Shown here one piece after another: positions 1,715 through 64,000 of a stretch of 64,000 nt of DNA. How positions within the stretch are numbered: the first letter of the stretch is position 1; the number at the start of each line of letters is the position of its first letter. The notes beneath the pieces were generated by a model. That model was not told where the DNA came from and ran no database searches. It was given only the letters and a program-made list of their open reading frames with translations. This DNA is from an uncultured Candidatus Competibacteraceae bacterium (GTDB taxonomy: Bacteria > Bacteroidota > Bacteroidia > CAIKAF01), in the NCBI GenBank assembly GCA_964624635.1, contig CAZUXM010000001.1, forward strand, positions 25,307-89,306. Reading direction: 5' to 3'. A program made the translations under genes and the position numbers.

Positions 1715-1717
1715 AAA

Positions 1718-9057: not shown

Positions 9058-9063
9058 CAGCTC

Positions 9064-10227
9064 ATGTTAAGTTTCGATAATACGGAAGTTGCCTTTGAGA
9101 GTAAATCAAATGCTGAGCTTAAAAGGGCTCATTTTTTATTTAATAGCATTGGTAAAAGATGGTTGGTTAGTTTTGGAAAAAAGTTTACTGGATTTGCGTT
9201 TAGCATAGGATTGCCCATCAAATCAATTATAAAAGCTACCATTTTTAAGCAATTTGTGGGAGGCGAAAACATTGATGATTGCGAAAAAACAATTGACTCA
9301 CTTAACAAGTTTGGAATAGGCACCATACTTGACTATTCTGTTGAAGGTAAAGAAGAGGAATCAAGCTTTGATGCTGCTGAGCAAGAACTGTTAAGGGCCA
9401 TCAAAAAAGCAGGTGAAGATAATAGAGTAGCTTTTTCGGTTTTTAAAGTATCAGGGTTGGGGCGTCATTATATTTTAGATAAAAAAAGTAAAAATGAAGC
9501 CTTTTCCGGAGATGAGAAAGAAGAGTGGGAACGTATTTATAAAAGAGTTTTTACCATATGCGAAGCTTCTTCGAAAATTAAACGACCCATATTTGTAGAT
9601 GCTGAGGAAAGTTGGATACAACCTGCCATTGATGAATTAGCATTAGACATGATGCGAAAATTTAATTCGCAACAATGTATTGTATATAATACAGCTCAGC
9701 TGTATAGACATGATCGATTGGCTTATGTGAAAGAAATTTTTGAACTTTCACAAAAAGAAAATTTCATTTCAGGATTCAAATTAGTTAGAGGTGCTTACAT
9801 GGAAAAAGAGAGAAAAAGGGCCGCTGAAATGAATTACGAAGATCCTATTCAACCTGATAAGGAAGCATCAGACAGAGATTTTGATGCCGCTCTATTGTTT
9901 TGTGTGGAACGCATTGAAAAAATGGCTATTTGCCTTGGAACACATAACGAAAACAGCAGTAAAAAACTGGCTGAAGAAATGCGAAAAAGAAATATAAAAT
10001 CCAATCATTCTCATATATATTTTGCTCAGTTATTAGGAATGAGTGACCATATCAGTTATAATTTATCTAAAGAAGGTTTTAATGTGGCAAAATATGTTCC
10101 TTATGGTCCGGTAAAAGAAGTAGTTCCTTATCTTATCCGAAGGGCTGAAGAAAATACTTCAGTAAAAGGGCAAACGGGAAGAGAGCTATCTCTCATCAAA
10201 AAAGAATTAGCAAGAAGGAAGTTATAG
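9064..10227 (+). CDS. proline dehydrogenase family protein
   Basis: Length and the motifs VDAEESW, QLYRHD, KLVRGAY.EKER, THN and YVPYGP...YL.RRA.EN match stand-alone PutA-type proline dehydrogenases. I prefer the ATG at 9064 to the TTG at 9055, which lies inside the promoter box. Confidence 0.85.
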   Translation: MLSFDNTEVAFESKSNAELKRAHFLFNSIGKRWLVSFGKKFTGFAFSIGLPIKSIIKATIFKQFVGGENIDDCEKTIDSLNKFGIGTILDYSVEGKEEESSFDAAEQELLRAIKKAGEDNRVAFSVFKVSGLGRHYILDKKSKNEAFSGDEKEEWERIYKRVFTICEASSKIKRPIFVDAEESWIQPAIDELALDMMRKFNSQQCIVYNTAQLYRHDRLAYVKEIFELSQKENFISGFKLVRGAYMEKERKRAAEMNYEDPIQPDKEASDRDFDAALLFCVERIEKMAICLGTHNENSSKKLAEEMRKRNIKSNHSHIYFAQLLGMSDHISYNLSKEGFNVAKYVPYGPVKEVVPYLIRRAEENTSVKGQTGRELSLIKKELARRKL

Positions 10228-13380: not shown

Positions 13381-14265
13381 ATGAGAAGAGTTGATACTAA
13401 AAATGGAAAGAATATTGGAGATGGATTTCCTACGTACATTATTGCAGAAATTGGAATTAATCACAACGGTTCTATTGAAATTGCAAAAAAATTAATTGAT
13501 GCTGCCATCAAGTCGGGCTGTGATGCCGTAAAATTTCAAAAAAGAACTCCGGAAATTTGCGTACCAAGAGACCAATGGGATAAAGAAAGAGAAACTCCTT
13601 GGGGTAAAATGAGCTATATTGACTATAAAAAGAAAATAGAGTTCAGTGAAGATGAATATGGTATCATTGATAAATATTGCAAACAAAAAGGGATTGACTG
13701 GTTTGCTTCCTGTTGGGATGAACCATCAGTAGATTTTATTGAACAATTTGACCCTGTTATTTATAAAATGGCTTCTGCTTCGTTAACCGATTTTCCTCTG
13801 TTAACCAAAGTAAAATCTACAGGGAAGCCCATTATCATTTCTACAGGAATGAGCACAATGGAAGAGATTGATATGGCTATTAAACATGTTGGTTTAGACA
13901 ACCTGCTTATAGCTCATTCCACTTCTGCTTACCCTTGTGTACCTAATGAACTTAACTTACGAATGATTGATACATTACGTAATTTATACCCTAATAATCC
14001 TATTGGGTATTCAGGTCATGAAACCGGATTAGCTACCACTGAAGCTACAGTAGCGCTGGGTTCTAACTTTATTGAACGTCATTTTACCCTTGATAGAGCC
14101 ATGTGGGGAACTGATCATGCCGCCTCTGTTGAACCGGAAGGAATGAGCAGACTGGTTAGAAATATTCGTGATATTGAGATTGCTTTAGGTGACGGGGTTA
14201 AAAAAGTATATGAAAGTGAAAAAGAACCTATCAAACGATTGAGAAGAGTTCATCTCACCAAATAA
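13381..14265 (+). CDS. NeuB-family PEP-condensing synthase (sialic acid/KDN-phosphate synthase-like) lacking the C-terminal SAF domain
   Basis: IIAEIGINHNGS...AVKFQ, ISTGMS, SGHE.G, ERHFTLD and DH.AS motifs of N-acetylneuraminate synthase family TIM barrels. At 294 aa the protein ends before where a SAF/antifreeze-like domain would lie. Confidence 0.85.
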   Translation: MRRVDTKNGKNIGDGFPTYIIAEIGINHNGSIEIAKKLIDAAIKSGCDAVKFQKRTPEICVPRDQWDKERETPWGKMSYIDYKKKIEFSEDEYGIIDKYCKQKGIDWFASCWDEPSVDFIEQFDPVIYKMASASLTDFPLLTKVKSTGKPIIISTGMSTMEEIDMAIKHVGLDNLLIAHSTSAYPCVPNELNLRMIDTLRNLYPNNPIGYSGHETGLATTEATVALGSNFIERHFTLDRAMWGTDHAASVEPEGMSRLVRNIRDIEIALGDGVKKVYESEKEPIKRLRRVHLTK

Positions 14266-15257
14266 TGTTAGAGTCAATCAGTAGTTTTTTTGCATCTATT
14301 AACTGGTCAAATCCGGCTACCATTTCTTTTTTAATCATTTGTGGGGCTGCTTTGTCGTTTGCCTTTATATGGGAAAGAATTTTCCCCTACCAAAAGGGAT
14401 TACCTCTATTCAGAAAAGGCTGGTATCTTGATTTTGTATGGTATACCATTATACAAAGTTTTATTATGGGTACCGTTATTTTTTCTTTTATTATCTATCC
14501 TGCAAGAGAAGCTTTAGGTCTATCAGATGATCAAGGTTTGTTATCACACTGGCCTCTTTGGGCATTGGTATTGTTCTTCTTTGTTACCCATGATTTTTAC
14601 ATTTATTGGTTTCACCGATGGCAACATTACAATCCGTATTTATGGCGAACCCACGAAGCACATCATAGTGTAGAACAAGTAGATTTTGCGGCAGGAAGCA
14701 GATCACATATGGTTGAAATACTCATTAATCAAACCATTGAATTTGCTCCTATTATTTTATTACTCGATGCCAAAACTGCTATCATAGTTCAAAGCATTAA
14801 AGTTACCATTGATGCTGTATATGGACAGTTTATCCATTCTAATGTAAATGCCCGATTAGGATGGTTTGGTTATATATTTAACGGTCCTCGTTTACACCAG
14901 TGGCATCATGGGGATGAATTAGAAGTATACCATGCTAATTTTGCTACTAAACTTTCGTTATGGGATTATTTATTTAAAACTGCTTACAATCCTGATCGTA
15001 AGCCTCGTAAATATGGAGTTTGGTATCGATTCCCTAAAGATTGGTTCACTCAACACATATTTTCCTTTGTACGGTTTAATGTAGGTAAACTTGAAAATTC
15101 AGTTCCTCTTAAATGGTATTTTAATGCTAGAGTAAACGCAATCAAATGTTTTTTTAAGCTATGGAAAATCATATTTAAGAGACGTTTAAATAAAAAACGT
15201 TTAATTGACGGAGAAATATATGCTCCTAAACCAGAATTAGTTGAAATAGATTATTAG
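14265..15257 (+). CDS. fatty acid hydroxylase / sterol desaturase superfamily membrane di-iron oxidase
   Basis: Multiple TM segments plus three histidine boxes (HRWQH, HEAHH, HQWHH). Start overlaps the stop of the NeuB-like gene by 1 nt. Confidence 0.8.
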   Translation: MLESISSFFASINWSNPATISFLIICGAALSFAFIWERIFPYQKGLPLFRKGWYLDFVWYTIIQSFIMGTVIFSFIIYPAREALGLSDDQGLLSHWPLWALVLFFFVTHDFYIYWFHRWQHYNPYLWRTHEAHHSVEQVDFAAGSRSHMVEILINQTIEFAPIILLLDAKTAIIVQSIKVTIDAVYGQFIHSNVNARLGWFGYIFNGPRLHQWHHGDELEVYHANFATKLSLWDYLFKTAYNPDRKPRKYGVWYRFPKDWFTQHIFSFVRFNVGKLENSVPLKWYFNARVNAIKCFFKLWKIIFKRRLNKKRLIDGEIYAPKPELVEIDY

Positions 15258-43945: not shown

Positions 43946-44959
43946 TTAGGCTTCTTTAGTCGTTTCTTTCAAAAACCAACTGGCGGTTTCTTTTACAGTT
44001 TCTTGTACGGGTTTAAAAGTAAAATTCAATTCCTTTTTTACTTTATCGTTTACATAGTCACACTGTAAAGTAGCATTTCGTAAAGTTTCTTTGGTAATTA
44101 ATGGAGATTTCCCAATGACTTTACTTCTCCACTTTTCAGCAAGCACAACCCAACGAGCAAGACCCAAATTCACTTCATTTTTTGCTTTCGGTCTATCTAT
44201 CGCTTCCGCAATTACATCAAAAACCCAGCGAAAAGGTTTGGTTTCGCTACTGAGAATGTACCTTTCGCCTGTTTTATTTTTTTGCATGAGTTGAATCATA
44301 CAAGTAGCCACATCTTTTACGTCTACCCAACCAGTATATCCATTGGTATAGTACTTCATTCCCTCCTGCACTTTGCTGAACATTTTACCGGTCCCTTCAT
44401 TCCATGGACAATATCCTAAAATAACCGCCGGATTCACAACAATTACATTTAATCCTTCTTCATACCCCCTCCAAACCTCCATTTCACTTTTATACTTACT
44501 CAATCCGTATTTACTGTTTACAGGATCATTTTTCCATATACGGCTTTCATCAATTACTTCTGCCTGCGTAGATCTTCCTAATGCAGCAATACTGCTCACG
44601 AACATAAATTTTTTGATGTTACAATATAAGGCAGCATTTACCAAATTAGCCGTAATGGTCACATTGTTTTTAATCATCCTATCATGATGATTGGGGTCAA
44701 AAGAAACTTCAGAAGCACAATGATAAATTTCTTCGATACCCTCTAAAGCATCTTCAATTTCATAAGAATCAAAAAGGTCTATATTTTTCCATTCAATTTT
44801 TTCGAATTGGGGTAAAACATTTTCCTTTTCAAAAACACGTTTTACGTAATTCAAATCGGAGGTTACTCGTTTGGCTGCAATAATTTTTGCATCCATAGCA
44901 CTTAGTTGCACCAATAAATGTGCTCCTAAAAATCCGCTTCCTCCGGTAACTAAAATCAT
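43946..44959 (-). CDS. NAD-dependent epimerase/dehydratase (extended SDR)
   Basis: ILVTGGSGFLG Rossmann motif and YGLSKYKSE (YxxxK) catalytic motif. 337 aa. Confidence 0.85.
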   Translation of the reverse strand: MILVTGGSGFLGAHLLVQLSAMDAKIIAAKRVTSDLNYVKRVFEKENVLPQFEKIEWKNIDLFDSYEIEDALEGIEEIYHCASEVSFDPNHHDRMIKNNVTITANLVNAALYCNIKKFMFVSSIAALGRSTQAEVIDESRIWKNDPVNSKYGLSKYKSEMEVWRGYEEGLNVIVVNPAVILGYCPWNEGTGKMFSKVQEGMKYYTNGYTGWVDVKDVATCMIQLMQKNKTGERYILSSETKPFRWVFDVIAEAIDRPKAKNEVNLGLARWVVLAEKWRSKVIGKSPLITKETLRNATLQCDYVNDKVKKELNFTFKPVQETVKETASWFLKETTKEA

Positions 44960-48356: not shown

Positions 48357-51300
48357 CTATTGTTTAATAATTCTTTTTGATACAACATTATTACCAAGCA
48401 TCAATTGAACAATATAAATTCCTCGTGCATATGCACTCATATCAATGGAAAATTGTGATGCAGAAATTTGTTTTATAAATACCAAACTTCCACGCATGTC
48501 ATATATCTTTATATTGTCAATTGTTTCACTGGCATTGATATAAACAAAATCTTTTGTTGGATTTGGATATAAATGGAAAGTATTATAAATATCTTCTATG
48601 CCTAAACCAACAATTACTATACATGAAGATGTATCAACACATGAATTTGTTCCTTCAATAATAACTGCATACTCACCGTCAACAATAGGAGTAAATGACT
48701 GACTATTGGCTCCCGAAATATTATTCAAATTAGTACAATCATACCATTGGTAATTGGCTCCTGATAAATTAGCTTGTATTGTAAAGCCTGATAAGTTTGT
48801 TGTTATATCAGGTAAAGTATTAAGAATGATAGAAACAGAATCAATATTTGAACAACCGTTCATATCAGTTCCTGTAACTATATATGTTGATGCTGACATT
48901 GGAATAAAAGAAATACCATCAGTAATACCGCCTGACCATGAATATGATTGTGCACCTGAACCATTTAAAATAATTGATAATCCTTGACAAATGGATGTGT
49001 CTGAAGGTGCAATTACTGATGGCAAACTGTTTACCACCACTTCTACACTATCAATATTCACACAATTGTTGGCATCTATACCATTCACAGTATAATACTG
49101 TGATAAAGTTGGAGTAAAAGGTGTATTGTCCAGCACCAAATCAGACCAAGTATAAGTATCAGCTCCTACGCCTGATAAAGTTACAGAAGACCCTATACAA
49201 ACAGAGGTGTCGTTCCCGGCAAAAACCAATGGCAATGAATGAACTATAACCGTAAATGTATCTGCGTTACTACATCCAAATGCGTTGGCAACTTCAAGTA
49301 TATAATCTGTATCTATCGATGGGTTTACCTCAATTGAATTTAATGTTGAAGCAGTGCTCCATTGATAGCTATTCGCCAAAGACCCTGTTAGAGTTGCTGT
49401 ATCACCATAACATATCTCATCATCTCCGGTAATTTCTGCATTTATATAATGAACAGTTAAATCCATAGAAGATGAAGTATCTACAGAACAACTTTTATAA
49501 ACCAAACATCTGAATTGTGCAGCATTAATTGCAGTATCTGCTACAATTATTAATGTATCATTGGTTACATTATTAAATAAAATACCGTTCGATATGCTAC
49601 TCCATCCTGATCCATCATTCATTTGCCATTGAAAACTTGTTGCACTGGATGCGTTTACATATAAACTTCCAGTATCGGAATAACAAAGTTCTAAATCAGG
49701 ACTTATTGATTCTATAGTGGTTAATCTTAATCTTTGCAGCTCATTATTATACGAAATAGCATAAGATGCCCCTAAATAGAGATAGTCATCTATTACATCT
49801 AAATAATTTGTATAACTACTACCAGCTCCTGAAACTAAGTTATCTACAAGATAGGTATTACAAGAATCGCCTTTGCTTGTCCATAATTCTGTTCCATGAA
49901 TCCCATCATTTGCTTCAAAAAATAAACGCCCATTAATATCTTTAAGTTTATTCGGAAATGATGACATTGTGCCAGTATAAATATCTTTTACTAATGAAAT
50001 TTGTCCATTCTTATATTTATAAAGCTCCTCGCCTACTAAACTATTATTCCCTTTAAAAAAGAGTGTATTACCACTTACTGTAAATAGATATGGGCTCAAC
50101 CCCCCGGTACCAACTGTATAGTCTGCCACCAATTGTGTTCCAATATTAGTACCATCACTTCTCCATAACTCGCTTCCTGTTGTCGGTTCATTTCCAAAAA
50201 AGAAGAGTGTATCATTAAATTCCGTTAAGTAATAAATTCCACTAGCTGCTCCCGGATTTACATCTTTTACTAAAAAAGTTCCTGGATCGGTCCCATCTGA
50301 CCTCCACAGTTCGATACCTTGTGTTCCATTATCAGCTCTGAAATAAAGTATATCATTTGAACTAATTAAGTCAACAGGATTTGATCCATTTGATCCGGAA
50401 TAAATATCTTTTACAAGCATGGTTCCTGCAAGTGCTCCATCTGTTTTCCACAATTCAACTCCGTTGGTTCCATTACTGGCAGTAAAAAATAATATCCCAT
50501 TGTTTACGTAAAAATTATTTATACTTGATCCGGATGCTCCGGGTCTAATATCTGCAACCATTATTGTACCTGCAACAGTACCATCTGTTTTCCATAATTC
50601 TGTTCCATTTACCCCATTGTTGGCTGCAAAATATAATTCGTTGTTATATATTATTTTTTGTTGATCTACCATTGAATGGCCTACACCTGAATAAATATCT
50701 GTTAACATATAGGTTCCAGCAGGTGTACCATCAGTTCTCCACAATTCCATACCAGAGGTAACATTGGTAGCTTCGAAATAAATGATTCCATTTAATTCTG
50801 TTAATGATGGGTTGTTTATACTACTTTGAGTTCCTGGCCAAATGTCTGCTAACATTTCTGTACCGGAATAAGTACCATCAGTCTTCCAAATTTCTCTACC
50901 ATGCACTCCATCCCATGCGATAAACACTATATTTCCATTTAATTCAACTCCTGCGTTTGGATCAGAAGCCCAAGACAATGTTGTATCCACTTCATCCATC
51001 AGGTATGTACCTCCAGTGGTTCCATCGGTTGCCCAAAGTTCTTTATCAACTCCATTATTTGCTGAAAAAAAAGCCTGATTACCCAATACAACAAAATCAT
51101 TTGGATAAGAATCATTGGTTGGATGAATATCATATAAAAGATAAGTACCTGCCGGTGTACCATCACTTCTCCATACTTCGGTTTCGTAGTAGGGAGCTGA
51201 ATTATTTTCCGCTGAAAAAATAACAACTCCATTTACTTCGTAAAAGCTACTATTAAATGATGTTCCATTTGTTCCCAGTGAAATGTCTTTCACTAAAACT

Positions 51301-52379
51301 GTACTGGCTGCCGTTCCATTACTTTTCCACAATTCCATTCCTGTAGCTATTGTATTGGCATTTAAGAACAGACCCAAACTGGTTCCCTTTAACCAGTTAA
51401 TTGAACTATGTGCAGCTCCCGGATTAATATCAACAACCAACGTGGTTCCTAAGGCAGTTCCGTCTGATTTCCACAATTCGTTTCCTGTTCCGGGGGTAGT
51501 TGCTGTAAAAAACAGCGTATCATTGTAGATAGTAAAATAATATGGAAAACTACTGGCAGACCCAGGATTAATATCTACCAACAAATTGGTACCAGCTAAA
51601 GTACCGTCTGACTTCCATAATTCATCGCCTGAAATACCATCATTTGCTAAAAAGTATAATTCATTATGATAAGAAATCAATCCTCGTGGATCAGAACTGC
51701 CTGGACCAGGGACAATATCTCTTACTATATATGTGCCCACTAATGTACCATCTGTTCTCCAAAGCTCATAACCCTGTGCTGATGTTTGGCTCCTAAAATA
51801 TAAAATACCATTATTAATAGTCGGAAAATCAATACTGGTTCCGCATGAGCCGGAACACAAATCCGCCACCATTACAGTCCCTGCTAATGTTCCATCTGAT
51901 TTCCATAATTCCGGACCATCAACTCCATTTGTTGCTCTGAAATAAATTTCATTGTTATATTCTATTAACAAGTCAACAGATGCATGTGCTGTACCAGGAT
52001 TAATATCCATAACCATTACTGTTCCCTCTTCCGTACCATCTGTCTTCCATAATTCTACTCCGTGTTCCGGTGTTTGAGCTCTAAAATAAACTATTCCACC
52101 AGCAACAATAAAATCAAAGGGAGAGGAAGATCCTGAACCGGGAACAATATCTTTTACCAATTTTGTACCTGTTGGAGTTCCATTGCTTTTCCATAACTCA
52201 TATCCGGTATAAGGACTATTGTAATATAAGTAAAACGTGCTGTCATTTACCTTTACTGATTGTCCAGCATCATTAAAATCCATTGGCAATTGGTTAATAT
52301 CTCTTACCAATTCAATTTGTTGGCTAAAACAGTTGATTGATAAGAAAAGAAAAGTGGTGATAGAAGAGAAGTATTTCAT
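48357..52379 (-). CDS. giant ELWxxDGT-repeat T9SS type A cargo protein
   Basis: Signal peptide from the ATG at 52379 (MKYFSSITTFLFLSINCFSQ). About 17 repeats of ~50 aa with the core ELW(K/R)(S/T)DGT..GT..V.DI.PG. Four Ig-like modules. C-terminal LYPNPTKDFVYI... sorting domain. Confidence 0.85.
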   Translation of the reverse strand: MKYFSSITTFLFLSINCFSQQIELVRDINQLPMDFNDAGQSVKVNDSTFYLYYNSPYTGYELWKSNGTPTGTKLVKDIVPGSGSSSPFDFIVAGGIVYFRAQTPEHGVELWKTDGTEEGTVMVMDINPGTAHASVDLLIEYNNEIYFRATNGVDGPELWKSDGTLAGTVMVADLCSGSCGTSIDFPTINNGILYFRSQTSAQGYELWRTDGTLVGTYIVRDIVPGPGSSDPRGLISYHNELYFLANDGISGDELWKSDGTLAGTNLLVDINPGSASSFPYYFTIYNDTLFFTATTPGTGNELWKSDGTALGTTLVVDINPGAAHSSINWLKGTSLGLFLNANTIATGMELWKSNGTAASTVLVKDISLGTNGTSFNSSFYEVNGVVIFSAENNSAPYYETEVWRSDGTPAGTYLLYDIHPTNDSYPNDFVVLGNQAFFSANNGVDKELWATDGTTGGTYLMDEVDTTLSWASDPNAGVELNGNIVFIAWDGVHGREIWKTDGTYSGTEMLADIWPGTQSSINNPSLTELNGIIYFEATNVTSGMELWRTDGTPAGTYMLTDIYSGVGHSMVDQQKIIYNNELYFAANNGVNGTELWKTDGTVAGTIMVADIRPGASGSSINNFYVNNGILFFTASNGTNGVELWKTDGALAGTMLVKDIYSGSNGSNPVDLISSNDILYFRADNGTQGIELWRSDGTDPGTFLVKDVNPGAASGIYYLTEFNDTLFFFGNEPTTGSELWRSDGTNIGTQLVADYTVGTGGLSPYLFTVSGNTLFFKGNNSLVGEELYKYKNGQISLVKDIYTGTMSSFPNKLKDINGRLFFEANDGIHGTELWTSKGDSCNTYLVDNLVSGAGSSYTNYLDVIDDYLYLGASYAISYNNELQRLRLTTIESISPDLELCYSDTGSLYVNASSATSFQWQMNDGSGWSSISNGILFNNVTNDTLIIVADTAINAAQFRCLVYKSCSVDTSSSMDLTVHYINAEITGDDEICYGDTATLTGSLANSYQWSTASTLNSIEVNPSIDTDYILEVANAFGCSNADTFTVIVHSLPLVFAGNDTSVCIGSSVTLSGVGADTYTWSDLVLDNTPFTPTLSQYYTVNGIDANNCVNIDSVEVVVNSLPSVIAPSDTSICQGLSIILNGSGAQSYSWSGGITDGISFIPMSASTYIVTGTDMNGCSNIDSVSIILNTLPDITTNLSGFTIQANLSGANYQWYDCTNLNNISGANSQSFTPIVDGEYAVIIEGTNSCVDTSSCIVIVGLGIEDIYNTFHLYPNPTKDFVYINASETIDNIKIYDMRGSLVFIKQISASQFSIDMSAYARGIYIVQLMLGNNVVSKRIIKQ

Positions 52380-52425
52380 AAGGCTTGTGTTAGCACACAA
52401 AGCTATTGAATTATATAACACTCAA

Positions 52426-55177: not shown

Positions 55178-55203
55178 TGTAATTGATTAGAAAATTGAAT
55201 ATA

Positions 55204-57924
55204 ATGAAAAGAATACTTTTTGCCCTAATTTCACTCTTACCCCTCATCGCCTTTTCCCAAACAGCCCCACCTATTCAATGGCAAAATACTATTGGAAGCA
55301 ATGGTTATGATGTTATACATGCTGCCCAACAAACATCAGATGGAGGCTACATTATCGCAGGACATTCTACATCCAACTCATCTGCCGACAAAAGTGAAAA
55401 TAATTTAGGGTTTGAAGATTGCTGGATTGTAAAGCTTGATGTTAATGGAAATATTGAATGGGAAAATACAATTGGTGGCAGTGGTGCGGAGTTTGCTATG
55501 GATGTAAAACAAACCTCTGACGGTGGTTACATAATCGGAGCCTATTCAAATTCGAATGCGTCCGCAGATAAATCTGAAAACCAAAAAGGAAGTACCGATT
55601 TCTGGATTATAAAATTAAATTCCACAGGCGCAATTGTTTGGGAAAATACTATTGGTGGAAATAGCAATGACGAATTATGTTCAATTGAAATTACAGATGA
55701 TGGTGGTTACTTAGCTGCGGGCTGGTCACAATCCGGAATTTCAAGTGATAAAACAGAAGCATCAATGGGGGCTTTAGACTATTGGATTGTTAAACTTAAT
55801 AGTACAGGTAGTATCGTTTGGCAGAATACCATTGGTGGTTCAGCTGGCGATCAGTTAAAGTCAATGGCTAAAACTTCAGATGGTGGATTTCTGTTAGGAG
55901 GTCAATCAAATTCAGGGATATCAGGTGACAAAACTGAAGCAAATCTATTTAGCAATGATTTATGGGTAGTGAAAGTTGATGATTTGGGAAATATTGTTTG
56001 GCAAAATACTATTACCAGTGGTGCCGAAGATTATTTTGAAAGCATCCAGGAAACAACTGACGGCGGAGCTATTTTAGGAGCATGGTCCAATTCAAATATA
56101 TCAGGCGATAAATCCGAAAATTCACAAGGAGTATGGGACTATTGGGTATTAAAATTAGACCCCGTTGGTAATATTATATGGCAAAATACAATTGGTGGCA
56201 CACAAGGCGATTATTTGTATGACATCAAACAAACTAGCGATGGGGGATATTTATGTGGTGGATTTTCTGATTCGGGAATAAGTGGTGATAAAACTGATAA
56301 TACAAATGGAGGCTTAGACTATTGGATTGTTAAACTTGATGCATCAGGAAGTATTTTATGGCAAAACTCTCTTGGCGGTTCTAATTTGGAGCTTTTTTAT
56401 GATATAGTGATAACTGATGACAACGGCTATTTGCTTCTAGGAGATTCCCACTCAGGGATTGGGGGTGATAAAACTGAAGGGAATTATGGATTAACCGACT
56501 TTTGGGTGGTAAAAACTGCTCCTGAATGTTTTAATCCTACCATCTCCAACGTAACTGTAAACGATAATGAAGTTTGTATAGGTGACTCCATACAATTAAC
56601 CATTACAGGTGATTTACAAAGCGCCGAATATTGGGCCATTTATTCCGGATCATGTGGTGGAACATTAGTAGATACTACTTCACAAAATTCAATTTGGGTG
56701 CATCCTACAACTAATACTGATTATTTTGTTAGAGGAGAAGGTGGCTGTGTTACTCCCGGAACTTGCTCCTCTGTTTCGGTTACTGTAAATGATTTACCCA
56801 CAGTAAATGCAGGAATAGATTCTACTTTATGTGTTGGGGCTACTTATACTTTGAATGCATCTGGAGCTAACTTATATTCGTGGAATAATGGGGTGGGGGC
56901 CGTTAATCCTGCGGTTGTTTCTCCAACAAGTAATTTACATTATACAGTTACAGGAACTGATGTAAATGGATGTATCAACATCGATTCTGTGTTGGTAAGT
57001 GTAAATAACTTACCAATTGTAAATGCAGGTACAGATACTACCTTATGTATAGCTGCTACCTATACTCTTCATGCATCCGGCGCAAATACTTATTTGTGGA
57101 ATCACGGTATTGGGGCTTTAAATCCTGCGAATGTTTCCCCAACAGATACACTTCAGTATACTGTTATTGGTACAGATATAAATGGTTGTACCAATACTGA
57201 TTCAGTAATAGTTAATGTGAATGTATTACCTAATGTATTTGCAGGTAACGATACGTTAATTTGTAACAATGTAGATATTGTACTTACTGCATCAGGTGCC
57301 AATACTTACGAATGGATTGATGTTGCTATTGGCAATCCTGTGAATACTGATCCTTTGACTACAGATTCTACTTTTATAGTTTTGGGAACTGATTTGAATG
57401 GTTGTTCTAATTCAGATACCATGGAAGTGACCATCTCTGTTGTGCCAACTATTAACTTCACCATTGGACAAGATACTATTTGTACATCACATAGTAGCAT
57501 AAGTCTATCAGCTACTCCTTCAGGCGGAGTATTTACAGGTAACGGTGTAACCGGAAATACTTTTGATCCTGCAACTGCCCCCACCCCCTCCCCAATCATC
57601 ACCCATACTTTTACCCCTGGCCATGGATCTACCGATGATGAGTTTGATGTAATTATGGTGAGTCCTTGTTTAGGTATTGGTGAAAATGAACAGAATAATA
57701 TTTTTCTCTTCCCTAACCCTGCAAGTGATTACTTGAATATTTCTTCTTCAACATCAACGATTACTTCCATTGAAATCGTTGACCTCACAGGAAGAAAAAT
57801 AAAGACGATAAATTTGAATACCAACTCAGGAATGATTGATATTAACGAGTTAACCAACGGAGCTTATTTATTGAATATGATAACTGAAAATGGTACCACT
57901 ACCAAACGATTTATAAAACACTAA
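55204..57924 (+). CDS. T9SS type A cargo protein with ~6 tandem 70-aa repeats and Ig-like modules
   Basis: Signal peptide from the ATG at 55204. Repeats W.NTIGG...D....I.QTSDGGY...G.S.S..SGDK.E...G..DYW.VKLD..G.I.W. Four LP.VNAG.D..LC......L.ASGAN.Y.W modules. C-terminal LFPNPASDYLNI... domain. Confidence 0.8.
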   Translation: MKRILFALISLLPLIAFSQTAPPIQWQNTIGSNGYDVIHAAQQTSDGGYIIAGHSTSNSSADKSENNLGFEDCWIVKLDVNGNIEWENTIGGSGAEFAMDVKQTSDGGYIIGAYSNSNASADKSENQKGSTDFWIIKLNSTGAIVWENTIGGNSNDELCSIEITDDGGYLAAGWSQSGISSDKTEASMGALDYWIVKLNSTGSIVWQNTIGGSAGDQLKSMAKTSDGGFLLGGQSNSGISGDKTEANLFSNDLWVVKVDDLGNIVWQNTITSGAEDYFESIQETTDGGAILGAWSNSNISGDKSENSQGVWDYWVLKLDPVGNIIWQNTIGGTQGDYLYDIKQTSDGGYLCGGFSDSGISGDKTDNTNGGLDYWIVKLDASGSILWQNSLGGSNLELFYDIVITDDNGYLLLGDSHSGIGGDKTEGNYGLTDFWVVKTAPECFNPTISNVTVNDNEVCIGDSIQLTITGDLQSAEYWAIYSGSCGGTLVDTTSQNSIWVHPTTNTDYFVRGEGGCVTPGTCSSVSVTVNDLPTVNAGIDSTLCVGATYTLNASGANLYSWNNGVGAVNPAVVSPTSNLHYTVTGTDVNGCINIDSVLVSVNNLPIVNAGTDTTLCIAATYTLHASGANTYLWNHGIGALNPANVSPTDTLQYTVIGTDINGCTNTDSVIVNVNVLPNVFAGNDTLICNNVDIVLTASGANTYEWIDVAIGNPVNTDPLTTDSTFIVLGTDLNGCSNSDTMEVTISVVPTINFTIGQDTICTSHSSISLSATPSGGVFTGNGVTGNTFDPATAPTPSPIITHTFTPGHGSTDDEFDVIMVSPCLGIGENEQNNIFLFPNPASDYLNISSSTSTITSIEIVDLTGRKIKTINLNTNSGMIDINELTNGAYLLNMITENGTTTKRFIKH

Positions 57925-57947: not shown

Positions 57948-57980
57948 AAAGCCTTTCTAATGATGGAAAGGCTTTTTTTT
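57948..57980 (+). terminator. Rho-independent terminator after the 913-aa T9SS cargo gene
   Basis: aaagcctttc / gaaaggcttt 10-bp stem with an 8-nt loop followed by a T8 run, 24 nt after the stop codon. Confidence 0.8.
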
Positions 57981-58124
57981 ACAACCGGGGGAGGGGGTGG
58001 CACACTTTTATAAATGAAATATACCAACACTTGATAAAAAAGGGCAGAGTATAATAAGCCCATTTTTTATTTGGTGTTAGTGGTTGAAGTTTTAACAGGT
58101 ATAGTGAAACACGGGATTAGGTGC

Positions 58125-58152
58125 AAAAAAAAGCCCCACATTTCTGGGGGCT
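58125..58152 (-). terminator. Rho-independent terminator after the PKS gene
   Basis: On the minus strand: agcccc-cagaaatgt-ggggct stem-loop followed by a T8 run, ~25 nt after the PKS stop at 58177. Confidence 0.75.
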
Positions 58153-58176: not shown

Positions 58177-61100
58177 TTATCCTTTTGCATCTGCTAAAAG
58201 AGCATCTAACTCTTCTTCGCTTAATGATTCTAAATCACTTAACATGCCTGATGCAATGGCTTTTTCTAATAATCCATTAGCTAATTGTGAAATGTTAGGT
58301 CCACTTAACAACTCCATTGTACTTACTTCTAATCCGAAGCGTGCCTGGAATGCACGACCTAACTCAACAGCTATTAATGAATCAACTCCAAGGAAATTAA
58401 TACCACGTGATTTATCAATTTTCTCAATAGATAATTTTAATACACGAGCTACTTCCTCAGCAGTGGCATTTTCCATATAACCTAAACGATCTGCTTCAGC
58501 TAATGCTGACAATTCGTTACATAGTTCAGCTAATTTACCACCTTGTCCACCTCCAGCTCCTTTAGCATCAGCTAACGCTTTGAAACGTGAACTTTGTGCA
58601 GATTTAGAATTGATGGCTGACCAACGTGCCCAATCCACATCAAACATACCTACTTGTACAGGCGTATTTTCAATGACAACACCCAAACCTTCTAAGGCTT
58701 CTGCAGTTGTAAATCCGAAGATACCACCACTTTCAAGTATTGCGGTAACATTCGCATCACGGGCAGCTACTCCAACCTCACCAAGTACTCCTAAGTTAAT
58801 AGTAGTTGCTTGTAAACCATTAGCTCTTCTATAACGTGCAAACTGATCTAAGAATGTGTTTGCAGATACGTAATTCGCCTGACCTGCATTACCTATTAAA
58901 GCCGAAATAGACGAGAAGGAAACAAAGAAGTCAAGAGGAATATCTTTGGTGTGTTTATGTACATTTAAAACTCCACCTACTTTTGCATGGTAAGAAGTAA
59001 CAAAACGATCACGATTCATGTCCACTAAGAAGCCATCATCTAACACAACTGCGCCATGAATAATACCTTTTAATGGTGGCATGTCCTTTTTAATTTTTGC
59101 TACCACATCAGCAACTGCTTTATCATTGGTAATATCAATTGGATCAGCATAAACTTTTGTACCGTTTGCTTCCATCAATTTGATAGCATCTTTTGCTTCA
59201 TCTGATTTAGCTCCGCTACGCGATGCCAACACCAATTGTTTTACTCCTTTATCAGATAACCACTGAGCAATTTGTAATCCAAATCCTCCGGTTCCTCCTG
59301 TGATGAAATAAGTAGCATTGGTCTCCAGTTCTTTCTTTTCAGATTTTACAGGAACTTCTACTTCCTGATCCTTAAAGCTGATCACCACTTTACCGATATG
59401 CTTAGATTGCAACATGAAATTAAATGCTTCTGCTGCGTCTTTAGCATCAAACAAATGGGTGTTGACGGCTTTAAATACTCCTTCTTCGTAGAACTTCTCA
59501 ATATCACGGTGAATAGCCTGAACTACTGTTGGGCGTTCCATCATTAATCTATCCACGTCAATACCTAAGAAAGAGATATTGTTGTTGAATTGTTGCATAG
59601 GTAATCCCGTATTTTCAGAAATATCACGTTTACCAATCTCAACAAAACGTCCGTAAGAAGCTAATAATTCAAATGATTGATATAATGCTTCACCTGCAAT
59701 TGCATTGATAACTACATCAACACCGTAACCATTGGTATCTTCTTTAATTTGTTTTACGAAGTCTAATGAACGTGAATCGTAGATATTTTTAATACCTAAG
59801 TTTCTTAAGTATTCACGTTTTTCTTCGCTACCTGCAGTGGTATAAATTTCAGCACCTACATATTGTGCATATTGTATAGCTGCTAAACCTACCCCACCGG
59901 TACCATTATGAATAAGGATTTTTTCACCTTTTTGTAATTGTGCTCTGTTACGTAAACTATACAATACAGTCATATAAGGTACTACCATCAATGCATCTTC
60001 GAAGCTGATGTTTTTTGGCTTACGTAAGTAATAGGTTGGTACGGAAACCACATAAGAACGTAAACAACCTTCAGGTGCAGCTAAAACAATTTCTTCACCT
60101 ACTTTAAAGTCTTTTACATTTGAACCTACACGGGTAATAATACCTGCTGCTTCGTGACCAATATTTCTTTCGTAGTATGAACCTTTGGTTGCTTTTTCAC
60201 TTAACTGACCAATTACTTTTAATCCGTCTTTTAAGTTTAAACAAGCGGCATAGTTACGAATCTCTACTTCATCAGGAGCCAATTCTTTTTTACGTTCAAA
60301 CTCATCGTAGTATAAACTATCCATACGACCAATTTGACCTACTTCTAACGAAACAGGAGTTTCGGTATTTACTTTTTTCTTATCACCTGAATTAGAACCT
60401 AAAGCAACCGCATTTAAACTACGTACATAACGTTTGTTTTTACGAATAGCGATATCTTCTTCCTTGTTACCTGAGATTACTTCTCTTGCTAATAAATCAA
60501 ATTCACCAGCATCTTTATCCTGATATAAATCGATGGTTTTGCAAGTAATATTTGGATTTTCATTACTGATCAAGTGATTTAACCCCCAGAATGCTGAAGT
60601 ATCTAATGATGCTCCTCTATCATAATTGATTACCACCTGTGCACCACAAGTAATTACAATCAAACGAATTTTATCATTCGGACGATTTTTAGCAATGGCT
60701 TTTGCAATGTAAACCACCGGCATCGTTTGATCTATGGCATCGTCAATAGTAATATCAGTACCACGATTTTTATTTTCTATACTCCAGGTATATAAAATGT
60801 GGCTGTATGATTCTGCAGCGAAAAGTTTGTGATAATCTTCTTCGTTTTTAGGATCGATAGAATAAACTCCTTCGTCATTGGTAAATCCATCACCTTTGAT
60901 AACTACAGAGTAGTCTACTCCTTTTTCAATCAATCCCTGAATCAAATCAAGGTTATCATATTCACCAAATACAAGGTATTTTCCCGCAGTATTAGCAGTA
61001 TCAGTTTCTTTAATTAATTCACCTTCGTTCCACTGATATTCATAGAACCAATTGTCCATTTTACCGGCATTGTCACCTTTACTGCTATTGATAGCCTGAC

Positions 61101-64000
61101 AAGTAATTCCTTCTAAAGCAACCAATACTTCTCCGCTTTCATCAAATAGTATTAAATCTCCGGTGATAGAACTGTCTGTTCTCTCGGTAATTTTACAATA
61201 GCTCCAACATTCACTTCCCGGACTTGTATAGAACATTACTTGTTTAATGTTTACAGGAACGAAAGGATTTGGATTGGTAGAACCATCACTTACAATGGCT
61301 ACCATCGATTGGAATCCTGAATCCAATAAAGTTGGATGTAATAAATAATTATCTTCATTACGAATCAAGGCATCATTTCCTTCCAACTTCACCAATACCT
61401 CATTATCTCCTTTATGAATTGATTTTACTCCCTGAAACCAAGGGCCATACATCAATCCACGAGCATCTAATGATTTATAGAATTCAGTAGCATCAGCTTC
61501 GTTGGTACAACGTTTTTTAATGCCTTTAAAATCAATTGTAGGAATGTCTCTTGAAATCGTATCCTTTAACAATCTTCCTGAAGCATGTAATGTCCATGGA
61601 GAATCATCTTCACGGTAACGGCTGTACACCGAATATTTTTTAGAATCAGGATTGTAAGTAGTGTGGAACATTTGAATTCTCTTATGATCCACTACCAATA
61701 CCTGATTGAACTCTAAGTTTTGTAAAGTACAAGCTGAATTACCAAATTCTTTTTCGTGAATGGCTAATCCGGCTTCTACATATGCCGCTCCGGGAACTAC
61801 CACCATACTCTCGATTTGGTGATCCTGCAACCAAGGAAGTAAATATTGATTGATTTCCACTTCCCAAGCAGGATATGGTTGACGGGCATTTTCGTTCATG
61901 AAAATATGACCCGGTACACCATGTTTCTCTTCAACCGAACGATCAGACTCTTGCCAATAATCATCCTTATCCCAGGCATAAGTTGGGATTTTGTTGTATT
62001 TACCACCCTCAGTAAATGGAGTCCAGTTAATATCGAAACCTAACGTATGTAAAGTTCCCAACGAATTCATTAAAGTAATTACCTCAGGGTCTCCACGACG
62101 TAATGACGGAACGATAGATCCTTTTACATCCGCAGCAGTTAAACATTCGTTGATGTTGGTTCGCAATACAGGATGTGGCCCTACTTCTAAAAATACAGTA
62201 TAACCATCATTTACCACTGTTTGTGCAGCTTTTGCAAAACGAACAGGTTGACGAACATTTTGCCACCAGTAATCATTGTTAAATTCAGTCCCGTCCATAA
62301 TGGTTCCGGTAACTGTTGAATACAATGGAGTGGTTGCTTTTTTAGGATTAACAGATGCTAATGATTTTAATAATTCATCTTTTAATGGTTCCATTTGGTA
62401 GCTATGATAAGCTACTTCAACGGTAAGCATTTTGTTGAATATATTTTGTGGCGTTAGAATCGCACTGATTTTATCTAATGCTGAACGTGTTCCGGCAATG
62501 GTAACTCCATTAAATGAGTTAATAGCAGCTACAGAAATCTCATTCTGTAAACCATTCTCATTGATGAGTTTTTCAGCGGCTTCCTCTCCTAATCCGATAG
62601 CTAGCATCGTACCTTGACCAGCAGTAGTTTGCTGGCAACGACTACGATGGTAACTTACCAATACTCCTTCTTTTAAAGTTAAAGCCCCGGAAACATAGGC
62701 CGCAGGAACTTCACCCACTGAGTGACCTACCACTGCTTCAGGACTAATTCCCCAAGCTTTCCATACTTCAGTAAGAGCCGCTTGTATAAAGAAATTACCC
62801 GGCTGTGCAATAGCTGTTTCGTTCATTCTTGATTCAGCCTCGGGCTTCATCAACTCATCTAATAAACTCCAGCCTGCAATCTCTTTAAAATATCCTTCAC
62901 ACTCATCAATTACTTTTTTGAAAATAGGTTCTTTCGAATACATCTCACGACCCATAGCCCACCATTGTGGTCCCATACCTGTAAATACGAAAACTAATTT
63001 TCTATTTTCCTGAATTTGATTTTTGGTAACCGCTGCTAAAACTTCTCCTTTAGCATAAGCTTCTAATTTCTCAATCAATTCTTCTCTGTTAGCAGCCACA
63101 ACAGTCATACGATGTAAGTGGTACGACCTTCTATACGCTAAAGTAAATGCAAAATCCGTAATGGTTACGTCAGCATTATTTTTTAAGAAATCAGCATATT
63201 TTTTACAGATACCTGTAAGTGCTACTTCACTTTTTGCAGAGATGGGGAATAAATATTGCTCTCTGGTATCTTTAACGCCTGCAGTAGAAAATTTAGCTAA
63301 ATAATCTAACGGAGGTTGTTCCATTACCATGTGGCCATTGGTACCACCGTAACCGAACGAATTGATAGATGCCAATAATTTTTCTTCCTTCTTAAAGTCT
63401 TCGAGTTTAAGAGCAACCTTAAGGGTATTATTTTCGAAATCAATTTTCGGATTTGCTTTCTTAAAATGTAAATGCGGTGGAACCTGACGTTTATTCAGAA
63501 TCAAAGATGTTCTGATAATACCGGCAACCCCTGCAGCAGCTTCTAAGTGACCGATGTTCGTTTTTACAGAACCTACGAATACTTTGCTGTTTTTATCATG
63601 AGCTGATTTAAGTACGTTATCTAACGCTGTTAACTCCAATGGGTCACCTACTTTTGTTCCGGTACCGTGAGCTTCAATGTACTTGATATCTTTTACTTCA
63701 ATTCCACAATTAGCATACACCTCGCGGATTAATTCTTCCTGAGCTTCTGGATTAGGAACAGTAATACCATTGGTAGCACCATCTTGATTAGATCCTGTTC
63801 CACGAACTACTGCATAAATGTAGTCTCCATCAGCCATTGCTTTTGACAATGGTTTGAATACAACTACCCCAACTCCTTCTCCACGAACATAACCCCCGGC
63901 ATCTTCATCAAATGCTTTACAACGGGCATGTTTTGAAAGGAATTGTCCTTTGCTCATCGCGATAGGATATTCAGGGCGTAACATTACGTTTACTCCACCT
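58177..64000 (-). CDS. type I polyketide synthase / FAS-like megasynthase, KS(partial)-AT-DH-psiKR-ER-KR-ACP; N-terminus lies beyond the window
   Basis: The reading frame is open to the window edge (..GGVNVMLRPEYPI..). See the domain sub-features. The ORF-track Met at 63984 is internal to the KS domain. Confidence 0.95.
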   Translation of the reverse strand, partial: GGVNVMLRPEYPIAMSKGQFLSKHARCKAFDEDAGGYVRGEGVGVVVFKPLSKAMADGDYIYAVVRGTGSNQDGATNGITVPNPEAQEELIREVYANCGIEVKDIKYIEAHGTGTKVGDPLELTALDNVLKSAHDKNSKVFVGSVKTNIGHLEAAAGVAGIIRTSLILNKRQVPPHLHFKKANPKIDFENNTLKVALKLEDFKKEEKLLASINSFGYGGTNGHMVMEQPPLDYLAKFSTAGVKDTREQYLFPISAKSEVALTGICKKYADFLKNNADVTITDFAFTLAYRRSYHLHRMTVVAANREELIEKLEAYAKGEVLAAVTKNQIQENRKLVFVFTGMGPQWWAMGREMYSKEPIFKKVIDECEGYFKEIAGWSLLDELMKPEAESRMNETAIAQPGNFFIQAALTEVWKAWGISPEAVVGHSVGEVPAAYVSGALTLKEGVLVSYHRSRCQQTTAGQGTMLAIGLGEEAAEKLINENGLQNEISVAAINSFNGVTIAGTRSALDKISAILTPQNIFNKMLTVEVAYHSYQMEPLKDELLKSLASVNPKKATTPLYSTVTGTIMDGTEFNNDYWWQNVRQPVRFAKAAQTVVNDGYTVFLEVGPHPVLRTNINECLTAADVKGSIVPSLRRGDPEVITLMNSLGTLHTLGFDINWTPFTEGGKYNKIPTYAWDKDDYWQESDRSVEEKHGVPGHIFMNENARQPYPAWEVEINQYLLPWLQDHQIESMVVVPGAAYVEAGLAIHEKEFGNSACTLQNLEFNQVLVVDHKRIQMFHTTYNPDSKKYSVYSRYREDDSPWTLHASGRLLKDTISRDIPTIDFKGIKKRCTNEADATEFYKSLDARGLMYGPWFQGVKSIHKGDNEVLVKLEGNDALIRNEDNYLLHPTLLDSGFQSMVAIVSDGSTNPNPFVPVNIKQVMFYTSPGSECWSYCKITERTDSSITGDLILFDESGEVLVALEGITCQAINSSKGDNAGKMDNWFYEYQWNEGELIKETDTANTAGKYLVFGEYDNLDLIQGLIEKGVDYSVVIKGDGFTNDEGVYSIDPKNEEDYHKLFAAESYSHILYTWSIENKNRGTDITIDDAIDQTMPVVYIAKAIAKNRPNDKIRLIVITCGAQVVINYDRGASLDTSAFWGLNHLISNENPNITCKTIDLYQDKDAGEFDLLAREVISGNKEEDIAIRKNKRYVRSLNAVALGSNSGDKKKVNTETPVSLEVGQIGRMDSLYYDEFERKKELAPDEVEIRNYAACLNLKDGLKVIGQLSEKATKGSYYERNIGHEAAGIITRVGSNVKDFKVGEEIVLAAPEGCLRSYVVSVPTYYLRKPKNISFEDALMVVPYMTVLYSLRNRAQLQKGEKILIHNGTGGVGLAAIQYAQYVGAEIYTTAGSEEKREYLRNLGIKNIYDSRSLDFVKQIKEDTNGYGVDVVINAIAGEALYQSFELLASYGRFVEIGKRDISENTGLPMQQFNNNISFLGIDVDRLMMERPTVVQAIHRDIEKFYEEGVFKAVNTHLFDAKDAAEAFNFMLQSKHIGKVVISFKDQEVEVPVKSEKKELETNATYFITGGTGGFGLQIAQWLSDKGVKQLVLASRSGAKSDEAKDAIKLMEANGTKVYADPIDITNDKAVADVVAKIKKDMPPLKGIIHGAVVLDDGFLVDMNRDRFVTSYHAKVGGVLNVHKHTKDIPLDFFVSFSSISALIGNAGQANYVSANTFLDQFARYRRANGLQATTINLGVLGEVGVAARDANVTAILESGGIFGFTTAEALEGLGVVIENTPVQVGMFDVDWARWSAINSKSAQSSRFKALADAKGAGGGQGGKLAELCNELSALAEADRLGYMENATAEEVARVLKLSIEKIDKSRGINFLGVDSLIAVELGRAFQARFGLEVSTMELLSGPNISQLANGLLEKAIASGMLSDLESLSEEELDALLADAKG
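58270..58512 (-). other. PKS acyl carrier protein domain
   Basis: LGVDSLIAVEL phosphopantetheine site (Ser codon 58378-58380). The protein ends ~65 aa later with an acidic tail and no TE/R/C domain. Confidence 0.85.
58765..59319 (-). other. PKS ketoreductase catalytic domain (B-type)
   Basis: YFITGGTGGFGL Rossmann motif, LDD motif (AVVLDDG), and SSISALIGNAGQANYVSAN with the catalytic Tyr. Confidence 0.85.
59374..60372 (-). other. PKS enoylreductase domain (MDR type)
   Basis: ILIHNGTGGVGLAAIQYAQ NADPH motif (59863-59916). GHEAAG near the N-terminus. HIGKVV near the end. Confidence 0.85.
60385..61062 (-). other. PKS structural (pseudo) ketoreductase subdomain
   Basis: ~225-aa spacer between DH and ER containing RLIVITCGAQVV, like the LWLVTRGAQ element of psiKR. 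No SAM-binding GxGxG of a C-methyltransferase is present. Confidence 0.55.
61090..61917 (-). other. PKS dehydratase domain
   Basis: HQIESMVVVPGAAY (HxxxGxxxxP-type, His codon 61819-61821), GLMYGPWFQ and HPTLLDSGFQ motifs. Confidence 0.8.
62035..63003 (-). other. PKS acyltransferase domain
   Basis: FVFTGMGPQW and GHSVGE (Ser codon 62719-62721). Downstream VAYHS at the specificity-motif position. Confidence 0.85.
63319..64000 (-). other. PKS ketosynthase domain, C-terminal two-thirds
   Basis: EAHGTGT and NIGHLEAAAG catalytic histidine motifs, and NSFGYGGTNGH. The active-site Cys region is outside the window. Confidence 0.9.

Follow-up and report, generated by a model that had tools for sequence, protein, structure and literature searches.

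A polyketide synthase (PKS)-dependent route to bacterial sphingolipids was first shown in 2025, in Pseudomonas. Pseudomonas fluorescens MYb115 makes C24-C28 sphinganines with SgaA, an iterative type I PKS; SgaB, an alpha-oxoamine synthase (AOS) with serine palmitoyltransferase (SPT) activity; and SgaC, a putative 3-ketodihydrosphingosine (KDS) reductase (Peters et al. 2025, PMC12134224). The survey in the same paper counted 6,101 adjacent PKS-AOS pairs, mostly in Burkholderia (PMC12134224). Because its search needed adjacency, it would have missed split loci like the one described here. Docking, domain details, and Bacteroidota homologues are mentioned neither in that paper nor in its supplements, and our literature searches on PKS-AOS docking or on PKS-derived sphingolipids in Flavobacteria found nothing. 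Here we describe a PKS gene at the end of a 64,000-nucleotide stretch (the window) of contig CAZUXM010000001.1, positions 25,307 to 89,306. The explanation that we favor, with confidence a little better than even, is that this stand-alone PKS hands its chain to a separately encoded AOS; the most likely release partner is a trans-acting AOS of the SPT type. The gene is real and intact, and its interest, which we rate as moderate, comes from a split pathway and a candidate docking code.

The PKS lies in an open frame of 1,940 stop-free codons on the minus strand, from 63999 to 58180, and the window edge is still inside the frame, in agreement with the original prediction of a single open reading frame (ORF) of more than 1,940 codons that remains open at the edge. 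The ATG at 63984 is merely the first in-frame start past the edge according to the ORF tool, not the start of the gene. Alignment with a 90%-identical relative (locus L007) and with the Pks2 model places the start codon and the ketosynthase (KS) cysteine ~630 nucleotides (~209 codons) beyond 64000, and the full-length genes in L007 and L010 (88% identity) have 2,148 to 2,151 codons. The features are listed below, with Pfam residue spans counted from window-edge residue 1 and not from the start of the protein.

58180..63999, minus strand: PKS coding sequence, the part inside the window (residues ~210-2149 of ~2,149 amino acids [aa]; window residues 1-1939 align with L007 residues 210-2147 at 90% identity)
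63463..63999, minus strand: C-terminal part of the KS (Pfam residues 1-179), with both catalytic His residues (EAHGTGT, NIGHLEAAAG)
63046..63453, minus strand: linker between KS and acyltransferase (AT) (residues 183-318; PF16197, PF22621, PF22336)
62035..62994, minus strand: AT (Pfam residues 336-655; ETAIAQP, GHSVGE, Arg in HRSR, VAYH)
61081..61875, minus strand: dehydratase (DH) (Pfam residues 709-973; HQIESMVVVP, YGPWF, LDSGFQ)
60514..60975, minus strand: structural pseudo-ketoreductase (psiKR) (Pfam residues 1009-1162)
59380..60276, minus strand: enoylreductase (ER) (Pfam residues 1242-1540; NADPH motif HNGTGGVG)
58783..59316, minus strand: ketoreductase (KR), B-type (Pfam residues 1562-1739; TGGTGGFG, LDD, catalytic Ser and Tyr)
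58276..58458, minus strand: acyl carrier protein (ACP) (Pfam residues 1848-1908; LGVDSL)
58180..58248, minus strand: acidic C-terminal tail GMLSDLESLSEEELDALLADAKG, net charge -6, a putative docking helix for a trans AOS
58177..58179, minus strand: PKS stop codon, from the translation
58124..58149 (stem 58134-58149), minus strand: intrinsic terminator-like hairpin and T8 run, 3' of the PKS

The frame reads as a genuine full-length PKS and not as a chance frame, because it can be aligned over its whole length with mycocerosic acid synthase (MAS; structure 9d2z, residues 202-2089 of 2124, E of 8.5e-237) and with the Pks2 model (positions 198-2083 of 2086, score of 1035 against a cutoff of 2400). 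The protein ends in LLADAKG. Three terminator-like sites occur between 57800 and 58400, against 0.3 expected from shuffled sequence, and the hairpin above matches the clean terminator originally reported at 58125-58152. The downstream neighbor is convergent (55183-57924, encoding a type IX secretion system [T9SS] cargo protein) and has a terminator of its own at 57948-57975. Recent horizontal transfer of the gene was considered, and composition gives no hint of it (GC content of 37.7% for the PKS and 35.3% for the window).

Pfam recovers on one polypeptide the domain order that had been read from the letters, KS-AT-DH-psiKR-ER-KR-ACP, and this order, together with the MAS and Pks2 alignments, upholds the description of a fully reducing, single-module type I PKS resembling fatty acid synthase (FAS) and MAS. 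All of the motifs quoted at the outset were found again: EAHGTGT, NIGHLEAAAG, GHSVGE, VAYH, HQIESMVVVPGAAY, LDSGFQ, IHNGTGGVGLAAIQ, ITGGTGGFGL, LDD, and LGVDSL. The visible domains look active, as first proposed, since the catalytic residues are intact within the window (KS His/His, AT Ser/Arg, DH His/Asp, the ER and KR NADPH motifs, KR Ser/Tyr with the Tyr in GQANYVSAN, and the ACP Ser), and these motifs are conserved throughout the family. The KS active-site Cys is encoded beyond the window edge, and the full-length relatives that were examined, L007 among them, all have DTACSS at this point. Likewise confirmed is the B-type assignment of the KR from its LDD motif, which fits an active DH. 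Pfam finds no thioesterase (TE), reductase, condensation, or methyltransferase domain in the window PKS, in line with the earlier reading that nothing for release is encoded in cis; only a 32-residue tail follows the ACP, and the DH-ER spacer (~270 aa) has no insert of the size of a methyltransferase or pseudomethyltransferase.

The original prediction had left the substrate of the AT unclear, but alignment with the methylmalonyl ATs of DEBS allows a more definite call. The window AT has ETAIAQP where these have RVDVVQP, GHSVGE for GHSQGE, and VAYH for YASH. ETAIAQP and GHSVGE are established motifs of malonyl-type ATs. VAYH is a hallmark of the whole PKS family, and it retains an aromatic residue where malonyl ATs have Phe. 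Malonyl-CoA is therefore the predicted extender, and a straight saturated chain the expected product, because none of the three discriminating motifs is that of a methylmalonyl AT and two are consistent with malonyl. The single module is probably used iteratively, because there is no other module in eight related loci and because MAS and SgaA provide precedents.

The evidence for the release partner comes from relatives of the window PKS. Four of them, with 48 to 53% identity, have an AOS gene immediately downstream of the PKS, and they belong to the three lineages nearest to the window's own clade (the target clade) in a crude neighbor-joining tree. In L018 (53%), the AOS start overlaps the PKS stop, and a phosphopantetheinyl transferase (PPTase) gene follows, with a short-chain dehydrogenase/reductase (SDR) gene nearby. 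In L015 (52%), an AOS that overlaps the PKS comes next, and then a methyltransferase and an MMPL transporter. The order in L013 (49%) is TetR, a 461-aa protein of no known family, PKS, AOS, an extended-SDR reductase, and a type II thioesterase, and that in L011 (48%, Saprospiraceae) is PKS, AOS, an uncharacterized 244-aa protein, and an SDR. In the tree, the target clade is sister to the L013 group, followed by the L015/L018 pair and then the L011 group, so that it nests among AOS-linked lineages. Some more distant members of the family carry the AOS on the same polypeptide: P0078 and P0081 (both from Candidatus Uabimicrobium), P0102, and P0104 have a C-terminal aminotransferase class I/II (AOS) domain fused to the ACP. 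Two distant members (P0075 and P0085) have a thioester-reductase domain instead. The more distant relatives L014 and L020 occur in different contexts, with the L020 PKS forming part of a multimodular assembly line.

A search with the L013 AOS recovered P0153, which is 63 to 64% identical to the PKS-adjacent AOSs. P0153 and the PKS P0011, which is 79% identical to the window PKS, are encoded on one 1.41-Mb contig, Ga0196970_1000001 (JGI), and they also co-occur in an independent ENA assembly. On this contig, the PKS and a divergent gene encoding a metallo-beta-lactamase (MBL) fold with rhodanese domains are at ~336 to 342 kb and the AOS is at ~912 to 914 kb, ~570 kb apart. The P0153 gene is followed by one for a 327-aa extended-SDR reductase that is 60% identical to the reductase beside the L013 AOS, and both P0153 and its reductase appear from sequence comparison to be orthologues of the L013 pair. 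The original prediction, which required release and tailoring to be encoded upstream of the PKS, is at odds with this arrangement, in which the likely partner genes are far away. Five more PKS/AOS pairs (P0043/P0181, P0047/P0172, P0051/P0235, P0068/P0171, and P0072/P0185) are possibly co-located, which is suggestive only, and in another Bacteroidota genome, the AOS P0152 is unlinked to both a PKS and the reductase. The best structural match of the AOS is the Sphingobacterium SPT (3a2b/8guh, E of 1e-69). The P. fluorescens cluster was represented by two proxies, a Pseudomonas plasmid cluster (L025, NZ_CP016850) that is syntenic with it and has its genes spaced alike, and the p2 cluster of Caballeronia insecticola (L026); their AOSs are 51 to 52% identical to that of the target clade.

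Several neighbors of these AOS genes were also recorded. In the 79%-identical relative (L021, 7400-9280), the unlinked AOS-reductase pair is just downstream of genes for biotin carboxyl carrier protein and biotin carboxylase (malonyl-CoA supply). The genes that come after the pair encode an MFS transporter, a HAD hydrolase, and a 742-aa protein without a match to any family. Eight close AOS homologues (P0190, P0196, P0201, P0210, P0230, P0234, P0239, and P0240) are fused C-terminally to an adenylating enzyme and an ACP; several of the fused forms are named Planctomycetia, and the N-terminal basic helix described below is absent from them. Such a fusion would be an alternative feed for the same AOS that has no PKS partner.

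Two short charged elements suggest how a PKS and a distant AOS could recognize each other. The acidic tail of the window PKS, LSDLESLSEEELDALLADAKG, which has a net charge of -6 and includes LSEEELDALLA, is conserved through the target clade; it is the acidic tail that had first been noted after the ACP. Its pattern, D-x-L-S-E-E-E-L-D-x-L-L, is shared by the target clade and the AOS-linked relatives and is recognizable in Kentrum. The tail is missing from the AOS-fused forms and from relatives without a separate AOS (L014 and L020 types). The stand-alone partner AOSs, in turn, have a conserved N-terminal segment, L-S-x-E-E-K-R-E-L-L-K-K-L-L-K-E-K, which is present in the unlinked P0153 and in Kentrum, Thiomargarita, and Shimia homologues; in model alignments the canonical SPTs of ~395 aa do not cover it, and the fused AOS forms are without it. 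The mean charge is about -6.6 for the PKS tails and about +2.6 for the AOS N termini. In the AlphaFold model of P0153 (mean pLDDT of 88), residues 3 to 20 form a helix (pLDDT of ~72), residues 21 to 39 form a low-confidence or disordered linker, and the AOS fold follows. Complementary charged helices that are lost upon protein fusion are a classical signature of docking domains. The acidic PKS tail and the basic AOS helix are thus suggested to be a docking pair, because neither element occurs in the fused forms.

Taken together, these data are consistent with the following pathway. A stand-alone, probably iterative, fully reducing PKS of ~2,149 aa would use malonyl-CoA to extend a long acyl chain, saturated and without branches, while the chain is bound to the ACP of the same protein. 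A separately encoded, pyridoxal phosphate-dependent AOS, expected elsewhere in the window's own genome, would take the chain off the PKS by condensing its thioester with an amino acid, of which serine is the likeliest, to give a 2-amino-3-keto lipid. Reduction of this lipid by the NAD(P)H-dependent reductase encoded beside the AOS would yield a long-chain base resembling sphinganine. The PKS gene of this Flavobacteriales clade would have become split from the AOS-reductase pair, with recognition preserved by the acidic C-terminal helix of the PKS and the basic N-terminal helix of the AOS.

The surroundings of the PKS gene bear on two other explanations. A genome scan for relatives of the PKS returned eleven related loci. 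In eight related loci (L001, L002, L005, L007, L008, L009, L010, and L023; 66 to 90% identity), the upstream neighbor is divergent, with a gap of ~250 to 280 bp, and the downstream neighbors vary. The PKS gene is monocistronic in its clade; therefore, its description as the last gene of an operon running beyond the window is not supported. That model, in which release and tailoring genes would lie just beyond 64000, draws on the fact that the frame has not closed where the window ends, which leaves the upstream DNA out of view. However, only ~209 codons are missing before the divergent neighbor is expected, and nothing PKS related is found within 10 kb in those related loci. We consider the operon model largely refuted and give it hardly any weight. 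The partner genes that had been suggested for it (thioesterase and acyl-AMP ligase), as well as condensation-type genes, are absent within 10 kb of the PKS relatives, as judged by Pfam in the flanks of L001, L005, and L007 and from the called genes in L023.

The divergent neighbor in the target clade encodes a ~470-aa protein that combines an MBL fold with two rhodanese domains (L007 copy at 7673-9097, minus strand). Over its whole length, the protein matches persulfide dioxygenase-rhodanese proteins of the CstB type (3tp9, 1e-74; 3r2u, 8e-62). The gene is the only neighbor kept across at least four differing genomic contexts of the target clade, although it is missing from L003 and from all of the outgroup loci; by analogy with the relatives, it is expected just beyond 64000 in the window. 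All that this gene and the PKS have in common may be a regulatory region. Alternatively, it might connect the pathway to sulfur chemistry (e.g., by providing sulfite for cysteate and for a base of the sulfonolipid type) or have a role as a hydrolase. The last of these possibilities belongs to an explanation that we regard as unlikely but worth weighing, namely, that a FAS-like synthase is relieved of its chain by an unlinked thioesterase or acyltransferase and makes very-long-chain fatty acids, waxes, or acyl lipids and not amino lipids, with the MBL-fold protein as a candidate MBL-type thioesterase. The persistence of the gene beside the PKS, the weak matches of its product to the SolJ MBL hydrolase and to thioesterases of the glyoxalase II type, and the lack of an AOS near the PKS in the target clade are all consistent with this explanation, as is the established off-loading of MAS in trans. 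The product of MAS is transferred in trans by PapA5. However, the end-to-end match is to CstB and not to PKS-associated MBL thioesterases, the gene has the gaps in distribution given above, and this explanation does not account for a conserved acidic tail that is common to the AOS-coupled relatives.

Release by a docked, trans-acting AOS must be weighed against a number of observations that count against it. By tblastn, no AOS was found in the window (58 kb downstream of the PKS), in L001 to L010 (10-kb flanks), or in L023; an AOS/SPT gene adjacent to the PKS, as in SgaAB-type loci, is thus absent from the window and present in L011, L013, L015, and L018. Adjacent AOS genes are also absent from the sister-clade loci L012, L016, and L017 (L013 group). 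Co-occurrence of the PKS and AOS within the target clade comes from one genome, and the tree that places this clade among AOS-linked lineages (123 sequences) is without support values. The docking proposal draws on a sequence pattern and single-chain models, and although the AlphaFold model computed from the single sequence of the ACP plus tail ends in a helix, its pLDDT of 51 makes it too weak for use. The PKSs of L025 and L026 are only 32 to 36% identical to the window PKS, and they are proxies and not the P. fluorescens SgaA itself; their DH-ER spacer is ~600 aa without a Pfam match, compared with ~270 aa in the window PKS. The conserved CstB-like neighbor is unexplained by transfer from PKS to AOS. 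Finally, the AOS scores under every curated NCBIfam cutoff, including those for SPT and BioF, and its amino acid substrate is not fixed by family.

This last point leaves room for the same PKS-AOS transfer with cysteate (or alanine or glycine) in place of serine, which would yield a capnine/sulfonolipid-type or 1-deoxy base and which we consider improbable. Flavobacteriia are known producers of sulfonolipids, the CstB-like persulfide dioxygenase encoded by the conserved neighbor would give sulfite for cysteate synthesis, and, besides falling below the SPT and BioF cutoffs, the AOS matches the structure of a cysteate-C-fatty acyltransferase (28eh, 7e-49). However, SPT is clearly nearer to the AOS (1e-69), and cysteate synthase was seen in none of the loci. 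The ~52% identity to the Pseudomonas AOS of an SgaAB-like cluster also points to serine, for which the characterized SgaB is specific (PMC12134224).

Other candidates in these regions were set aside. The aminotransferase encoded at the L023 edge belongs to the ordinary class I enzymes and is not an AOS. When the relatives' AOS, reductase, type II thioesterase, PPTase, MFS, HAD, MMPL, methyltransferase, and uncharacterized partner proteins were searched against the window by tblastn, nothing relevant was found; the sole match was a generic NAD epimerase (43946-44959, 25% identity). A NeuB-family gene and, after it, a gene for a 330-aa member of the fatty-acid-hydroxylase superfamily are found at 13381-15257 (plus strand), ~43 kb from the PKS. 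The fatty-acid-hydroxylase superfamily includes sphingolipid C4-hydroxylases.

Enzymes of this kind had been thought uncommon in Bacteroidota, a view that this family does not support. The target clade alone has at least 21 clusters (clustered at 90% identity) among relatives of 65 to 91% identity, homologues of 2,120 to 2,180 aa with the same domains are numerous, and further members occur in metagenome-assembled genomes (MAGs) of Flavobacteriales, Saprospiraceae, and Chitinophagales. At 41 to 53% identity, the members are named Chitinophagales, Candidatus Kentrum, Chloroflexota, Bacillota, and Acidobacteriota, among others. The Bacteroidota origin of the window is confirmed by its richness in type IX secretion cargo proteins; large ones with CHU_C/Por_Secre_tail C-terminal domains, PKD, and Ig repeats are encoded at 134-3907, 10229-12406, 48357-52421, and 55183-57924. 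Contigs L003, L005, and L009, with PKSs of 66 to 75% identity, were deposited as “Candidatus Competibacteraceae” (Gammaproteobacteria) MAGs and are probably misbinned or mislabeled; the CstB-like neighbor is also present on L005 and L009.

Directly upstream of the PKS in the sister clade is a TetR regulator gene paired with one for a protein of ~455 aa that has no Pfam or NCBIfam match and is 80 to 86% identical among four of the five loci listed here.

L012, 7907-9893: TetR and ~455-aa protein pair
L013, 8047-9980: the same pair
L016, 5203-7178: the same pair
L017, 5218-7300: the same pair
L019, 5974-7913: the same pair

An IS200-type Y1 transposase gene is inserted between this pair and the PKS in L016 and L017.

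A broader version of our proposal is tentative and, in our judgment, more doubtful than the proposal itself. It holds that environmental Flavobacteriales, other Bacteroidota, and bacteria of the Kentrum and Thiomargarita type may rely on a dedicated MAS-like iterative PKS, and not on the type II FAS pool, to make long-chain bases of the sphingoid or sulfonolipid type, that an undescribed helix docking pair to a distant AOS preserved their coupling after the genes separated, and that here the pathway is tied to a CstB-like sulfur-oxidation gene. If transfer to a trans-acting AOS is correct, the noncanonical PKS route to sphingolipid-type lipids found in 2025 in Pseudomonas and Burkholderia would reach free-living Bacteroidota, and searches demanding an adjacent PKS-AOS pair would undercount the pathway, as the genes can split. 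Matching charged helices would then be a simple, testable code by which an iterative PKS and the enzyme that off-loads it recognize each other, and this code could aid partner prediction in fragmented metagenomes as well as engineering. For annotation, the lack of a TE does not equal an incomplete cluster.

Among known systems, animal type I FAS shares with the window PKS the order KS-MAT-DH-ER-KR-ACP (MAT, malonyl/acetyltransferase), a complete reduction cycle, and a malonyl extender, and the ER-KR region matches pig and human FAS. However, the window PKS has neither a C-terminal thioesterase nor a pseudo-methyltransferase, and its KS-AT half is much nearer to bacterial PKSs; with a protein end 32 residues after the ACP and the short DH-ER spacer, it is not an animal-type FAS. 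A subunit of a polyunsaturated fatty acid (PUFA) synthase or a heterocyst-glycolipid cluster, which the original prediction had named as the finding that would overturn it, is likewise rejected. Such systems are recognized by tandem ACPs, a KS-CLF pair, a FabA-type DH, and a multisubunit cluster; here, there is a single ACP, the DH is of the PS-DH type, the PfaA score is 280 against a cutoff of 1010, and no partner PKS genes for such a cluster are present in eight related loci.

Closer in logic are the fungal sphinganine analogues, i.e., fumonisin (the highly reducing PKS [HR-PKS] Fum1, the AOS Fum8, and the reductase Fum13), sphingofungin, and myriocin. There, as proposed here, the chain is built by a reducing PKS and comes off through an AOS, which condenses it with an amino acid under decarboxylation; the resulting ketone is then the substrate of a reductase. 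The fungal enzymes differ in being HR-PKSs with a C-methyltransferase, in eukaryotic clusters and with toxins as products, and the likeness drawn here is one of logic.

The mycobacterial enzymes MAS and Pks2 are the best end-to-end structural and sequence templates. They have the identical domain order, including a psiKR without a pseudo-methyltransferase (psiME), and they also lack a TE and are off-loaded in trans, as is predicted for the window PKS. However, its AT is malonyl type, whereas theirs are methylmalonyl type (RVDVVQP, GHSQGE, YASH) and give methyl-branched chains, and a FadD-type ligase or PapA-type acyltransferase is found in none of the PKS contexts, where the putative partner is an AOS. 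The AT motifs and the Pks2 score, 1035 against 2400, led us to reject orthology with MAS/Pks2.

The nearest characterized parallel is SgaA/SgaB/SgaC. Both systems have a single-module, fully reducing PKS without a TE, to which the relatives of the window PKS add an SPT-like AOS and a reductase, and long-chain sphingoid bases are the predicted outcome for the window PKS as well. The PKS-AOS pairs of L025 and L026 sit amid capsule-type genes (Wza-like export, ABC transporter, chain-length determinant, and LTA-synthase family proteins), with an LpxC-like deacetylase, a GNAT protein, and a phytanoyl-CoA dioxygenase also nearby, which hints that the sphingoid lipid of such clusters anchors or decorates a surface glycan. 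The two systems differ in several respects. The window PKS is ~350 aa shorter than the Pseudomonas-type proxy (DH-ER spacer), it is unlinked from the AOS in the target clade, its host belongs to another phylum, and its product is a prediction. In addition, the reductase of L013 and L021 is an extended SDR (HpnA/3beta-HSD-like) and not a classical SDR of the KDS reductase type. The window PKS thus appears to be a relative with MAS-like architecture that would do the job of SgaA, and it is probably not an orthologue of SgaA.

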